This document shows, one piece after another, positions 23,847 to 27,907 of a DNA stretch of 43,943 bases. The notes under the pieces were generated by a model that had not been told where the DNA came from, made no database searches, and worked only from the letters and a program-made list of their open reading frames with translations. How positions within the stretch are numbered: the stretch's first letter is position 1; every line of letters begins with the position of its first letter. Made by a program: the position numbers and the translations under genes. Location of the stretch: the NCBI GenBank assembly GCA_946415665.1, contig CAMKTI010000001.1:1-43943 (forward strand), given 5' to 3'. Source of the DNA: an uncultured Clostridia bacterium. Lineage in GTDB: Bacteria; Bacillota; Clostridia; Lachnospirales; CAMVHY01.

Positions 23847-23975
23847 ATGAATAACTATCCGCGTCTATGCGGAGGAACCCTCTTCATCTAGTGTTGCAGG
23901 CCATTCGTCAGCGAGTGCGTGCCAGAAAACATTACAATGGTGAAAGTGACGGTCTCTTAGATCCATAGGTCCTGA
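23847..23975 (+). pseudogene. small upstream ORF (43 codons, two in-frame TAG), function unknown
   Basis: Reads MNNYPRLCGGTLFI*CCRPFVSECVPENITMVKVTVS*IHRS. Its TGA overlaps the ATG of the next gene (TGATG at 23973-23977), which suggests former translational coupling. In-frame TAG at 23889-23891 and 23958-23960. Confidence 0.3.
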
Positions 23976-24595
23976 TGGAACTGATTAAAGTTATCAATCC
24001 TGATTATCAAAAGGTGGACCTCAATGCGCTTAAAACAAAAGCAAACGATTATAAGTTCTGCAAGATTTCTGGTGATGCCTACCTTCCGTTTGGCGACATG
24101 CAGGAGATTCGCTTTTTCAGCGAACGAGTGAGAAACAACTACAGGGCAGCGTTAAATGACATGATCGGCTTCGTGAATGACTTCCTTGATCTCGGAAAGG
24201 CCGTAAGCAAGGCGGTGCAGCTGGCAAGAGAACTCATCGACTTGATTCAGCGGGATGAGTCGGTTGCCATGTCTGAGGAGTTCTTTATTAGATCCGATGG
24301 TCAGAGAATAAAAAAGACCGCGCTTGGTGGCCTGGATGAGGTGTACCTGCCCGCATTCCTGCTTGGTATATGGCACTATGCAGTTGTGAACAGAAAAGAT
24401 AACACCGTGGGCCAAGATACCTATAACACGTGGTGTCCGCCAGTAGGTGGGGATCCACGGGTGTACTCGGCTCGCATGGACAAAGGCATCCTTGATGGGC
24501 TTTCTGTCTATTATGTTAATACGGAAGACACCCCACATTTTGAGGTGGAATACGCAGATCATACCGAAGCCGAGATAGTAGATCCCATCCCGTAG
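23975..24595 (+). CDS. hypothetical protein, 206 aa; the only long open frame left in the island
   Basis: Uninterrupted ORF, mostly helical-looking (..RFFSERVRNNYRAALNDMIGFVNDFLDLGKAVSKAVQLARELIDLIQ..). The frame continues for 37 more sense codons after TAG 24593-24595 (..NPFVFNFTQNGNNNTQIGHVEHYH..) up to TGA 24707-24709, so even this ORF may be truncated. Confidence 0.55.
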   Translation: MELIKVINPDYQKVDLNALKTKANDYKFCKISGDAYLPFGDMQEIRFFSERVRNNYRAALNDMIGFVNDFLDLGKAVSKAVQLARELIDLIQRDESVAMSEEFFIRSDGQRIKKTALGGLDEVYLPAFLLGIWHYAVVNRKDNTVGQDTYNTWCPPVGGDPRVYSARMDKGILDGLSVYYVNTEDTPHFEVEYADHTEAEIVDPIP

Positions 24596-24713
24596 ACGAT
24601 GCAGCAAATAGCGAACAATCCGTTTGTGTTCAATTTCACGCAGAACGGAAACAACAATACCCAGATTGGGCATGTTGAGCATTACCATGCTGGAAAGAAG
24701 GAGGACTGATCCA

Positions 24714-25359
24714 ATGGAGAAAGACTTGTAGATAGCCTCAAAGAAGCTCCCACAATAAGCTCAATTTATACCGGTGACTCTGACCTAGACCGGAAACGAC
24801 AATATGCAGATTGCTTATGTCCAACACTATGATGCGATGACGAATCAGTCCGTCCTTATCATGCATGGGGCACAACCATCAGCGCCGGTTGCCGGGCAAG
24901 GAGTTACGTTCAATTGTGACTGCTTCAGTTTCTTTGTATTGGAAAACTAGCAGTACGACGGTGTGGCGTTCATGATGTCGAAGAACCGCGCTTTAACCGA
25001 GAGTACATCTCAGGAAATGAAAGATTTGTGCTCGGCTCTTACGCCGGAAACCATCGCCATTATAAAGATGTTTCCATCGCTGTTTTGCAGTGAAAATCGG
25101 CATTTTACAAAAACCGATCCGGACCACATGGGCCTACTATGGATATATGACGGATATAAAAGTGTAGGATAACGGTACCAAAGTTTATTTTACAAAGCTC
25201 AATGCAATGCCACAGCAGGTACTGATTGATCTCGCTGCGGGATTATGTATCGGTGGCGCGAAGGCGTACAACGAGCTGAACCGGACGCATTGGGCCATAA
25301 AAAAAGTGAACTTGGTCGAGAAACTTGAAAAGGCCGGGTACCGCGTATTCAAACTGTAG
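24714..25359 (+). pseudogene. unknown gene, about 215 codons, with five in-frame stops and one frameshift
   Basis: A strong RBS (AAGGAGG 24698-24704) sits 9 nt before ATG 24714. One frame runs to 25172 through TAG 24729, TAA 24756, TAG 24786, TAG 24948 and TAA 25170, and contains ORF 24963..25172. After a shift near 25165 it continues DNGTKVYFTKLNAMPQQVLIDLAAGL..NRTHWAIKKVNLVEKLEKAGYRVFKL* (TAG 25357-25359). Confidence 0.45.
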
Positions 25360-25384
25360 GTTTGTCTTTAAAACGGAGGTAAGA

Positions 25385-25584
25385 ATGAGCACAGAATATG
25401 AAAACATGAATGTGGAAAAATGGATCAATTTGGAAGATGTATCAAAACACCTGAGCATCAGCCAAGACACCGTCCGCACATGAATCAAAGAGGGAAAACT
25501 GCCCGTCTACTATGCAGGCAACGATATAAATTCAAAATTTCCGAAGTAGATGAATGAGTCCACGAAGGAAAGGTTCAGGAATGA
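25385..25584 (+). pseudogene. excisionase/MerR-type HTH DNA-binding protein (two W->TGA, one frameshift)
   Basis: Reads MSTEYENMNVEKWINLEDVSKHLSISQDTVRT*IKEGKLPVYYAG then (-1 shift) QRYKFKISEVDE*VHEGKVQE*. This fits the HTH_17 consensus ..L...E.a..L.vs..Tv..WI..gk.P....G...rF...e.deW... TGA 25481-25483 and 25555-25557 fall exactly on the two conserved Trp positions. RBS ACGGAGG upstream. Confidence 0.7.
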
Positions 25585-25615
25585 TCTTTGAAACTGAATT
25601 AAGGTGGTAATGTAG

Positions 25616-27907
25616 ATGCAGCGAAAAGTCCCTTAAGCAATCACAAACATAATGCTCGTCAAGGCAACATTTAGCAATATGCCGATTGACGAGCTTACTT
25701 TCGTTGACTTCTTCTATGGCAATAACGGAGCAGTAAAATCCTCCATCGTCCACGCTATTGCAGAGAATGACGACATCGTGTGGGCTGACGGTAAGTCCGC
25801 AGCGGATTATAATATACTCGTTTATAATCAGAATTTCATCAACAACAACTTTGTAAATTACAACGATCTCAAAGGCGTCTTTATCTTTGGTGAGGAGGAT
25901 ATCGAGGCCAAAAAGAAGATCGCTGAACTCACGGATCAGAAAAAACAGAAAATGGATGCTCGTCAGACTGCTCTTGATGAGCATAAAAAGAAAACAAATA
26001 GCCTTGCATCGGCGATGACGCAGTTTCAGGATACCTGCTTTACAAAGACTGCAGAAATCCGTAGACGCTTCGATAAGTGTATGAACGGCAAGAAGCAAAA
26101 AAAGAACTTTGCCGAGGCCGTACTTATTGAAGCAAGACCGACTGATCTTGATCTGACAGAGCTGGAGCGTATCTATAACGTAGCCTTTGATGATTCAGCC
26201 AAAGCATATACGGAGTTAAAAAAAACGCCGCTACCACCTACGGCAGTCTTCCCGGAAAGAATCTGCTCGATAGGATGATTGTCAGTAGCAGCGATACGCC
26301 TTTCGCAAAATTCATGAAGGCCCTTGGTGATACAACATCCGATTGGGTTCGTGGTGGTCATACCCATTATGCCGGTGCAACTGGTGGAAAGTGCCCGTAC
26401 TGCCAGCAGCTGCACCGGCAAACTTCGAGGCGGATATTGCGTCAACCTTTGATGTTCAGTGTCAGCAGGACATTCGTGACCATGGGCAGTTCCAGGCTGT
26501 GTATGAAAGAGAGACCAGAAAAATTGTCCGGGTACTTCAGGCTAATGCCAACAACGTTATGCCGACGATTGATCTAACTGCATATCAGGAAAAGCTCGCA
26601 TTACTTGAGATCAACTTTGAAATCAATCGTCAGCGCATTGTTGAGAAGGTCAAAGAACCGTCCAAGACCATTTCGCTTGAGAACACCGATACGCTTCTGT
26701 TGGAAATCGGTGCGATGATCGACGAAATCAATAAGCAGATCAAGGCAAATAACGATGTTGTTTCTGCCAAGAGATTCAGCAAGAGCAAATGTAATACGGA
26801 AATCATGCAGTATCTTGCATTTGTGCTAGATGCTGACGTGAAGAGTTATCAGGATGAAGTCGGCTGGCTCCAGAAGGAAATCGACGACGTTACTGAGCGT
26901 GGCAAAAAGCTCAGGAAAGAAATTGGGGACCTGACAAAAAGATCTCCGACTTGAATAAGTACAACACGAATACTGAGGCTGCCATCGACAGCATCAATAA
27001 AATTCTGAAAGATTCCGGATTCCAAGGCTTCGGCATTCACGCCAAAGAAGGTTTGAAGAACGTGTATGAGGTTATCCGAGAAGATGGCTCCATCGCTGAA
27101 AACATCAGTGAAGGTGAGCGCAATTTCATAGCTTTCCTATACTTCTACCATCAGGTTCGTGGCAGCATGAGCAGCGAGGGGCTCAATAAAAAGATCGTTG
27201 TTATCGATGACCCGGCAGCCAGTATGGATAGCACGGCCCTGTTCTGTGTCAGCGCAATAGTCCGTGAGATGATTAATGTATGCCGGAACAATACTGAGTA
27301 CCTGGATCTGAATATTACCGGCGACTATATCAAGCAGTTGTTCATCCTGACCCACAACGTGTACTTTCACCGTGAAGTCACTTACCAGCAGGTCAGGTGT
27401 TACAACTGCACATCGTTTTACATGATTCGGAAGAACGACAACCTCTTCACTATCAAGCTCTGCAAACGTCAGAGTAAGGAAATCCCGACCGCAGAAGACA
27501 ACTATAACCCGGTCCAGAACTCATATGCCGCTCTGTGGAATGAGCTCCGGGACATCCAGTCTACGATTCCGGCCCTGAACGTAATGAGGCGCATCCTCGA
27601 ATACTACTTTCTGCAGCTCTGCGGATATGAAGGAAATGACCTCCGGGAAATCATTCTGGAAAAACCGGAAAATCGTAACAAGTTCATAAAACAGGTTGAA
27701 AGTGAGAAGCCGGATATAACTGATTACCAGCCAGCCTCTTTCTTGTTGGCGTACATCAATAATCCGAATGGAATCAGCGATGGACTGAACTATGTTGAGG
27801 ATTGCGAGAATGTCGACGCATACAAGCGGGTCTTCCAGATAATCTTTGAGGCCCTCGGTCAGAACCAGCATTATAAGATGATGACTGGCAAACGGATAAA
27901 GTCCTGA
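25616..27907 (+). pseudogene. AAA_13/ABC-type ATPase of the restriction-linked PrrC/RloC-like class, multiply disrupted
   Basis: AAGGTGG RBS before ATG 25616, then TAA at codon 7 (25634-25636). The Walker A region FFYGNNGAVKSS differs from the consensus G.NG.GKS(S/T). It has a long coiled-coil insert, ..GGKCPYCQQ.., then ..NISEGERNFIAFLYFY.. (ABC signature-like), ..KIVVIDDPAASMDS.. (Walker B) and ..MRRILEYYF... Four consecutive ORFs (25652, 26275, 26343, 26951) lie in three frames, giving at least three frameshifts. One is at an A-run near 26935, and one may be at A8 26217-26224. Confidence 0.7.

Follow-up and report, generated by a model that had tools for sequence, protein, structure and literature searches.

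Upstream of an hsdM-type methyltransferase gene, contig CAMKTI010000001.1 of an uncultured Clostridia bacterium carries a row of closely packed, decayed genes, and the question raised by this locus is what these genes encoded before they broke. The window analyzed here comprises the 43,943 nucleotides of positions 1 to 43,943 of the contig. Three-frame translation and tblastn with intact homologues revealed four genes on the same strand at 23841-27907, namely two genes that are called A and B here, an excisionase-type helix-turn-helix (HTH) gene of the HTH_17 family, and a gene for an AAA_13 ATPase of the ATP-binding cassette (ABC) type. All four are broken, and the window locus is a non-functional fossil. 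An earlier, sequence-only reading had proposed an ATPase-centered defense module. By analogy with known systems, A and B would instead be a self-contained effector-sensor pair of the amyloid-signaling type that is separate from the HTH_17/ATPase unit, a reading we regard as probable with moderate confidence.

According to this proposal, A would be the executioner, consisting of a helical domain and an Asn/Gln/Gly-rich tag of ~25 residues, and B would be the sensor, with a matching N-terminal tag and a small alpha/beta domain. Upon a trigger B would assemble, its tag would take a cross-beta fold and template the tag of A, and the templated tag would switch on the helical domain, whereupon the infected cell would be arrested or killed (abortive infection). 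HTH_17 and the RloC-like AAA_13 ATPase (PDC-S06) would represent a separate, restriction-linked unit, usually co-resident, which stands at the head of a methylation-based system of variable type. By analogy with the HET-S/NWD2 pair of fungi, the Bell/NLR pairs (NLR, NOD-like receptor) and the Bab/Agp pair, we infer that the tag is an amyloid motif, that A is toxic and that a trigger starts the process.

The intact form of the array can be read from its relatives. Scanning a 206-amino-acid (aa) fragment of A against one genome per species yielded 18 loci, and the order A-B-HTH-AAA_13 is present in 10 of these and in most of ~150 viral-contig loci. In Evtepia gabavorous (locus L001) A has 292 aa and B ~220 aa when counted from its likely start (234 aa in the gene call), followed by HTH_17 with 66 aa, AAA_13 with 762 aa, and hsdM; all array genes are intact and are separated by gaps of 13-33 bp. 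The same gene order is found in L003-L007, L009 and L010. The window is 74% identical to L001 at the nucleotide level across 23840-29102.

Matching tags and the domains they join

Within each locus, the last ~25 residues of A match the first ~25 residues of B; in L001 the two tags are NFNQYGNNGTQIGHVENY and NLNQYGNDSTQIAYVQHY. The tags differ widely between loci, yet each fits its own partner. For 79 unique pairs the mean local-alignment score of cognate A-tail/B-head combinations is 56, compared to 33 for non-cognate ones, and none of 20000 permutations reached the observed sum (z=18). Seventeen tag classes exist, and cognate matching is kept in all of them. Within pairs the identity is 45% at the amino acid level and 56% at the nucleotide level, and the same codon is used at only 49% of the identical residues. 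Therefore, the likeness is kept by selection at the protein level and not by recent duplication or gene/DNA conversion. Taken together, there is strong comparative evidence that A and B are coupled through their tags. It is extremely improbable that the similarity of the tags is a chance product, without function, of a local duplication where A meets B, kept alike by DNA recombination: while only ~100-150 bp separate the coding sequences of the tags, which share a strand, half of their identical residues have different codons, the 17 classes are diverged, and the same tag is also present on an unrelated upstream protein as well as on NACHT and DUF6650 proteins.

The tag consensus is roughly phi-N-Q-T-G-N-N-N-T-phi-phi-A-H-phi-D-T-phi-N. 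The Gly is near-invariant (148/158) and belongs to a G-N-N-N turn, which is flanked on either side by a strand with alternating hydrophobic residues. Asn accounts for 18% of the residues, N+Q+G+S+T for 48%, and charged residues for 10%. Judged by sequence, this make-up is that of known amyloid signaling motifs. Some tag classes contain G-x-Q-I-G, which resembles the G-phi-Q-phi-G core common to RHIM, PP and BASS3 (10.1101/2020.01.06.895854; BASS, bacterial amyloid signaling sequence).

Gene A encodes an N-terminal helical domain of ~225 aa with an invariant FLLGIWHY motif (A-dom), an acidic linker, and the C-terminal Asn/Gln/Gly-rich tag. The AlphaFold2 (AF2) model has a predicted local distance difference test (pLDDT) score of 73 overall and >85 in the domain, which is helical at residues ~10-230, starts with a hydrophobic helix and is followed by a disordered tail. 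The earlier statement that the two upstream proteins belong to no recognized family holds across Pfam, NCBIfam, PADLOC and PHROGs, none of which contains a family matching A or B, and Pfam searches with the intact L001 copies and the window fragments gave nothing at E<=0.1. All named homologues of A and B are "hypothetical proteins", profile searches of PDB sequences with A and B found nothing, and the fold search with A gave no match below E=1. A profile search with A-dom retrieved 1202 clusters (50% identity), and the domain is always N-terminal, at residues ~1-225. Among the best 150 cluster representatives, 88 have the split form of ~300 aa, 20 are longer than 700 aa, and 12 also hold the B domain. 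The long forms that were scanned (L014, L015, L017 and four representatives) are NACHT proteins, and six of the seven also match SNaCT14. Bacterial NACHT proteins carry their effector as the N-terminal module (Kibby et al., 10.1101/2022.07.19.500537), and by its place in the sequence A-dom takes this effector position in the NACHT-SNaCT14 relatives. One protein of 508 aa (L018:8918-10444) seemingly contains two tandem A domains, with the motifs FILGVWHY and FLLGIWHY.

In gene B the N-terminal tag is followed by a low-complexity linker and a C-terminal alpha/beta domain of ~150 aa (B-dom, motif NELNRTHWAIK). In the AF2 model residues 1-68 are disordered and the domain has a pLDDT of 80-90. The fold matches of B-dom are weak and PUA-like (YTH with E 0.014, Lon-N, and ASCH in viral models), and we take the PUA-like fold of the model as a hint, not as an assignment. 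A bolder version of the proposal, which we regard as unlikely, would build on this hint: a PUA-like (YTH/ASCH/Lon-N-like) sensor of ~150 aa would read a nucleic-acid or modification state and fire a new helical death effector, constituting an amyloid switch free of NLR and nucleoside triphosphatase (NTPase) that the ATPase would possibly join. The state that is read would have a link to the methylation-based systems, which are always found behind the pair, and the cassette of tag and sensor would be swapped between elements that are otherwise identical, in an arms race with phages of gut Clostridia.

Several observations weigh against the interpretation of A-B as an amyloid-signaling pair. Ten representative tag-bearing tails did not match Pfam, including RHIM, HET-s, PP and sigma, even at E<=10, and AF2 models the tags only as low-confidence hairpins. 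No similarity of A-dom to Bell or HeLo domains or to solved folds was detectable, and a membrane-targeting or killing role of the domain is therefore suggested solely by its position in NACHT proteins. In addition, B does not contain an NTPase, and the ATPase, near-constant in the islands, could take part in the function of A-B. The failure of the tag to match a described amyloid-motif family and the low-confidence hairpins would also suit a tag that docks or sorts proteins without being amyloid, e.g., by beta-strand augmentation in a stable heterodimer or as a common localization signal, and A-B would then serve a purpose different from abortive infection, such as control of the mobile element; the pair is always located beside the element's sigma-like regulator and replication module. 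We regard this explanation as improbable, because A-dom is fused to NACHT-SNaCT14 defense ATPases, the pair is always found at the head of a defense island, the composition, length, terminal placement and split/fused alternation of the tag equal those of known amyloid signaling pairs, and the rapid exchange of B cassettes fits an arms race.

Modularity of the pair and the role of the ATPase

Tags and domains are combined in various ways. Downstream of A, L008 encodes a NACHT-SNaCT14 protein and a DUF6650 protein, each with the tag at its N-terminus. The protein that precedes B in L150, L155, L158 and L171 is not related to A but has the same tag, and from its sequence this family could serve the sensor as an alternative effector. 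Its members (L150:2772-3926, L155:3619-4326, L158:3176-4333, L171:3673-4329) share the N-terminal pattern ..FSEFAQ..IG.GSNTSAFARTL.DTIV.., have a weak match to phrog_6948, and their tag VNQYGEKNVHI.HVD.L matches the adjacent head of B. Another, uncharacterized C-terminal domain (..RNVLQP...ELR......Y..L..YP) replaces the tag on the A domain or on the alternative effector family (L012:4568-5746; L150:2772-3926; P0242, P0285, P0390). The 12 representatives that also hold the B domain are direct A-B fusions; the sequence of one fusion, in L016, was inspected, and there is no tag between the domains. A comparison of L003 with L005 revealed 93% identity for A-dom and 96% for the ATPase versus 51% for B, and the tail of A is swapped together with B (Table 1). 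Because both change together, tag and B move as a cassette, and the alignment suggests that the breakpoints of recombination are located within A and behind B.

The synteny of intact ATPase homologues with the upstream genes, expected from the sequence-only reading, was found in a scan seeded with the ATPase. A and B are located upstream in 69 of 77 loci and B with another effector in five, which places B just upstream of the ATPase in 74 loci; the remaining three contigs have a non-adjacent ATPase further down the same island, which starts with A-B-HTH. This arrangement favors one ATPase-centered system of A, B and AAA_13, in which the ATPase would be the sensor or switch (for DNA breaks or restriction failure, e.g.), B the adaptor and A the effector. 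Further points in its favor are that no pair of loci has a similar B yet a dissimilar ATPase (the identity matrices of B and ATPase correlate with r=0.79), that in loci without HTH_17 the ATPase directly follows B, even overlapping it in L150, with an XRE-type HTH dividing it from the cargo, and that an ATPase without the canonical nuclease His may need an external effector. However, the B/ATPase correlation could be explained by co-inheritance on one element family, entire restriction cassettes can separate B from the ATPase, and A-B also occurs without it. L019 has the order A-B-HTH-hsdMSR, in L013 A-B is followed by genes on the opposite strand, in L178 and L181 a fused A-B stands alone at the same hotspot, without HTH, ATPase or restriction-modification (R-M) genes, and in L008 a NACHT protein is the partner of A. 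Because of these loci we read A-B as autonomous, and we regard the single ATPase-centered system, which is the main alternative, and with it this part of the earlier prediction, as unlikely. On the same comparative grounds of occurrence, we read the ATPase as a frequent, dispensable and restriction-linked neighbor that would be functionally independent of the pair.

The earlier prediction had also suggested a relation to ABC-three-component (ABC-3C) systems. The array resembles these in that a coiled-coil ABC ATPase lies beside small uncharacterized proteins in defense islands, but A and B match no Pfam ABC-3C middle or effector C-terminal-domain family, and A-B occurs, also as a fusion, without the ATPase. 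The other suggestion, an anticodon nuclease of the PrrC/RloC type, was followed in 85 unique ATPase homologues with 37-95% identity. Conserved in this set are Walker A, GKCPYCQQ (>90%) in the coiled-coil insert of ~300 aa, the signature LSEGERNF, Walker B, the H-loop, and a C-terminal N-V-x-R-R-I-L-E. The ATPase shares with RloC the ABC-type ATPase, the coiled-coil insert with a CxxC "zinc hook", the linkage to restriction-modification, and the C-terminal R-x3-E (R659 >90%, E663 60-90% conserved). RloC and PrrC are defined by the triad Arg-X3-Glu-X36-52-His (PMC2610378). The R-x3-E part of the predicted nuclease motifs was thus recovered, but the columns +36 to +52 after the Glu contain no conserved His, the sole conserved C-terminal His being H751 at +88. 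Therefore, the PDC-S06-type ATPase is RloC-like, but not a member of RloC. PrrC is short, lacks a coiled coil and combines its ABC ATPase with a C-terminal nuclease domain, in contrast to the array ATPase with its long insert; the PADLOC match to PrrC is weak (E 8e-6) and covers the ABC signature/Walker B region. No match was found to the RloC and PrrC models of NCBIfam, and the ATPase profile retrieved nothing at E<=0.01 from PDB sequences. The four ATPase fragments of the window match the PADLOC candidate system PDC-S06 (PDLC04890) in order, at profile positions 10-206, 224-268, 266-441 and 447-725 (best E 2.7e-98). In the literature PDC-S06 was found in census mentions only, and functional tests were not found.

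The intact HTH of L001 matches Pfam HTH_17 with E 6e-15. Its score against the NCBIfam model antiphage_MADS1 (NF047737) is 55.7 bits, below the cutoff of 80, and it shares with the MAD1 HTH of the methylation-associated defense system (MADS) only the HTH_17 superfamily.

A decayed copy at the edge of a mobile element

The features of the window locus are listed in Table 1. The GC content steps from ~29% to 43-47% at ~23270, and the array is part of a high-GC island within a genome of ~29% GC. A broken insertion sequence (IS) at 22476-23255 directly precedes this step, and from there through the end of the window all genes are disrupted. The divergent remnant of a small sigma-like regulator, whose homologue in L001 matches Pfam Sigma70_r4_2, marks the left edge of the surviving mobile element, right after the IS remnant and the GC jump.

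Table 1. Features of the decayed locus in window coordinates; the last row refers to the loci L003/L005.
Feature	Position	Strand	Basis
Sigma-70-region-4-like small regulator remnant, divergent	23297..23704	-	tblastn to the gene upstream of A in L002, L004, L009, L010
Gene A pseudogene, ~290 codons	23841..24709	+	tblastn to L001 A
A-side tag NNPFVFNFTQNGNNNTQIGHVEHY, candidate signaling motif at the A C-terminus	24614..24685	+	matches the B-side tag
Gene B pseudogene, ~215 codons	24714..25359	+	tblastn to L001 B
B-side tag (..T*TGNDNMQIAYVQHY), cognate of the A-side tag	24774..24830	+	translation; alignment to the head of L001 B
HTH_17 (excisionase-type) pseudogene, 66 codons	25385..25584	+	Pfam HTH_17 E 1.4e-11 on read-through
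AAA_13 ABC-type ATPase pseudogene, 762 codons	25616..27907	+	Pfam AAA_13; PADLOC PDC-S06
Outer hsdM-type methyltransferase, 5' part (context)	27950..29170	+	blastn to L001, L003, L005, L006
L003/L005 swap region	A 9860-10750, B ~10731-11390		

The earlier description of a dead, tightly packed same-strand array just upstream of an hsdM-type methyltransferase, derived from a conserved defense operon adjoining hsd genes, is supported, with corrections. Four genes were found where five had been claimed. The supposed first gene of 43 codons is not open, as it is interrupted by a TAG after 14 codons and by a frameshift, and the supposed 206-aa protein is a fragment. Both form, together with a 36-codon open reading frame (24599-24709), one gene A of ~290 aa, because the intact homologue in L001 has 292 aa. 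The lesions of A are one frameshift at ~23886 and TAG codons at 23966 and 24593. Gene B contains TAG at 24786, 24948 and 25165, a frameshift at ~25140, and two further stops in the 5' region (at least five stops); one TAG lies within its tag. The excisionase-type HTH predicted earlier is indeed an HTH_17 protein by Pfam, and its gene is broken by TGA at 25481 and 25555 and by one frameshift. The AAA_13 ATPase with coiled-coil insert and CPYCQQ motif was likewise recovered (Pfam AAA_13 E 2.9e-55 for the last fragment), and the window gene encodes GKCPYCQQ, the LSEGERNF signature, Walker B, the H-loop and the C-terminal R-x3-E. All the lesions for which it had been called dead were found as well: a TAA near the start, at 25634, one frameshift each near 26220, 26400 and 26937, and a Gly-to-Val exchange in Walker A (GNNGAVKSS). 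The methyltransferase itself is split: its 3' part is located at 43003-43807, past an insert of ~13.8 kb, and in alignments with L001, L003, L005 and L006 the halves correspond to a single uninterrupted gene, which in L001 matches Pfam HsdM_N and N6_Mtase. The insert includes a second type I system that is likewise broken.

Contigs from independent ruminant-gut runs hold the same broken sequence with at least 99% identity. Because these runs share the lesions, the decay is real, and an assembly error was rejected as its cause. One metatranscriptome contig of 3853 nt (run X1) spans 23721-27572 of the window with 15 substitutions and one additional C after position 25455; it may stem from transcripts of the pseudogenes or from DNA in the RNA library. 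Both Trp codons of the HTH_17 gene are TGA (25481-25483, 25555-25557), at positions where relatives carry W under table 11 (TGG). A decoding of TGA as Trp was rejected: the intact relatives read W from TGG, and two TGG-to-TGA changes without recoding are assumed because the same genes also contain TAG and TAA stops and frameshifts.

In the protein collection and in IMG/VR, the array adjoins the divergent gene of the sigma-like regulator and a replication module of the phage type, with DNA_pol_A, DUF2800/PDDEXK, an Enc34 single-stranded-DNA-binding protein and a primase. The array occupies the end of a prophage-like element. A megablast search of the whole island against PLSDB plasmids gave no match. 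The cargo downstream of the array varies, and each one annotated is a DNA-methylation-based system: type I hsdMSR, SNF2 + DUF4391 + N6_N4 methylase, D12 methylase, Eco57I/MmeI-type enzymes, or DUF6079. Where the ATPase is not adjacent, HTH_17 is followed by three genes, which encode an SNF2-type helicase (1076 aa), a DUF4391 protein (203 aa) and an N6_N4 methylase (~610 aa), and this cassette recurs at L036:7919-14126, at L008:14360 onwards and in L049, L058 and L063. A highly conserved XRE-type HTH of 67-72 aa (MRISYNKLWK.LIDK.M...DL...) borders the restriction cargo in loci without HTH_17, and on its other side lie effector, sensor and ATPase genes or an A-NACHT fusion (L015:12487-12699; L150:6888-7100; L155:7299-7502; L171:7390-7593; L053:9977-10195). 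At the window locus, the four leading genes of a defense island have survived as a fossil. The island is carried by a prophage-like element of Oscillospiraceae-type Clostridia, and the copy is stranded in a low-GC ruminant-gut Firmicute.

Comparison with known signaling pairs and significance

The closest parallel in layout is Bab/Agp of E. coli ECOR25 (BASS11), in which a non-NLR sensor activates a small effector via a shared amyloid motif during phage infection (Ibarlosa et al., 10.1101/2024.11.07.622273). Both pairs consist of adjacent genes in a prophage defense hotspot, the C-terminal tag of the effector equals the N-terminal tag of the sensor, and the sensor is not an NLR. The outcome of Bab/Agp is abortive infection, and the same would apply to A-B. 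However, Bab has a Bell-like domain of ~90 aa, in contrast to the helical domain of 225 aa in A without detectable Bell/HeLo similarity, and A-B has Clostridia as hosts and is a system known from sequence. The comparison of the A-B tag covered the amyloid-motif families of Pfam and gave no match.

The Bell/NLR pairs BASS1-10 (Dyrka et al., 10.1101/2020.01.06.895854) and fungal HET-S/NWD2 also have the tag at the C-terminus of the effector and at the N-terminus of the receptor, and in these systems, too, split two-gene and "all-in-one" forms both exist. The L008 variant adds a true NACHT receptor with tag, as in Bell/NLR. In contrast, the receptor of A-B is devoid of an NTPase in most loci, and the effector fold differs. 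BASS pairs have been reported to be specific to multicellular bacteria (10.1101/2020.01.06.895854), whereas A-B is found in unicellular gut Firmicutes and their prophages. With bacterial NACHT proteins that have SNaCT domains (10.1101/2022.07.19.500537) the relatives of A-dom share the N-terminal placement in an effector-NACHT-sensor layout, but the window locus contains no NACHT gene, and A-dom is absent among the NACHT-associated domains of Pfam.

From the sequence comparisons, the putative effector and sensor domains are new, as are the families of tags, and the pair is widespread in prophage-like elements of gut Clostridia. In the literature searched, Bab/Agp is the one experimentally supported case of amyloid-type signaling in bacterial immunity. 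If the proposal is true, the principle of amyloid signaling would extend to abundant gut Firmicutes and their prophages, and it would include a new effector domain with more than 1000 sequence clusters, which is also used by NACHT immune proteins, as well as a very small, NTPase-free sensor. How the specificity of tag pairs is encoded could then be studied in a natural test bed of 17 co-varying tag classes, with both split and fused pairs and with exchanged effectors.

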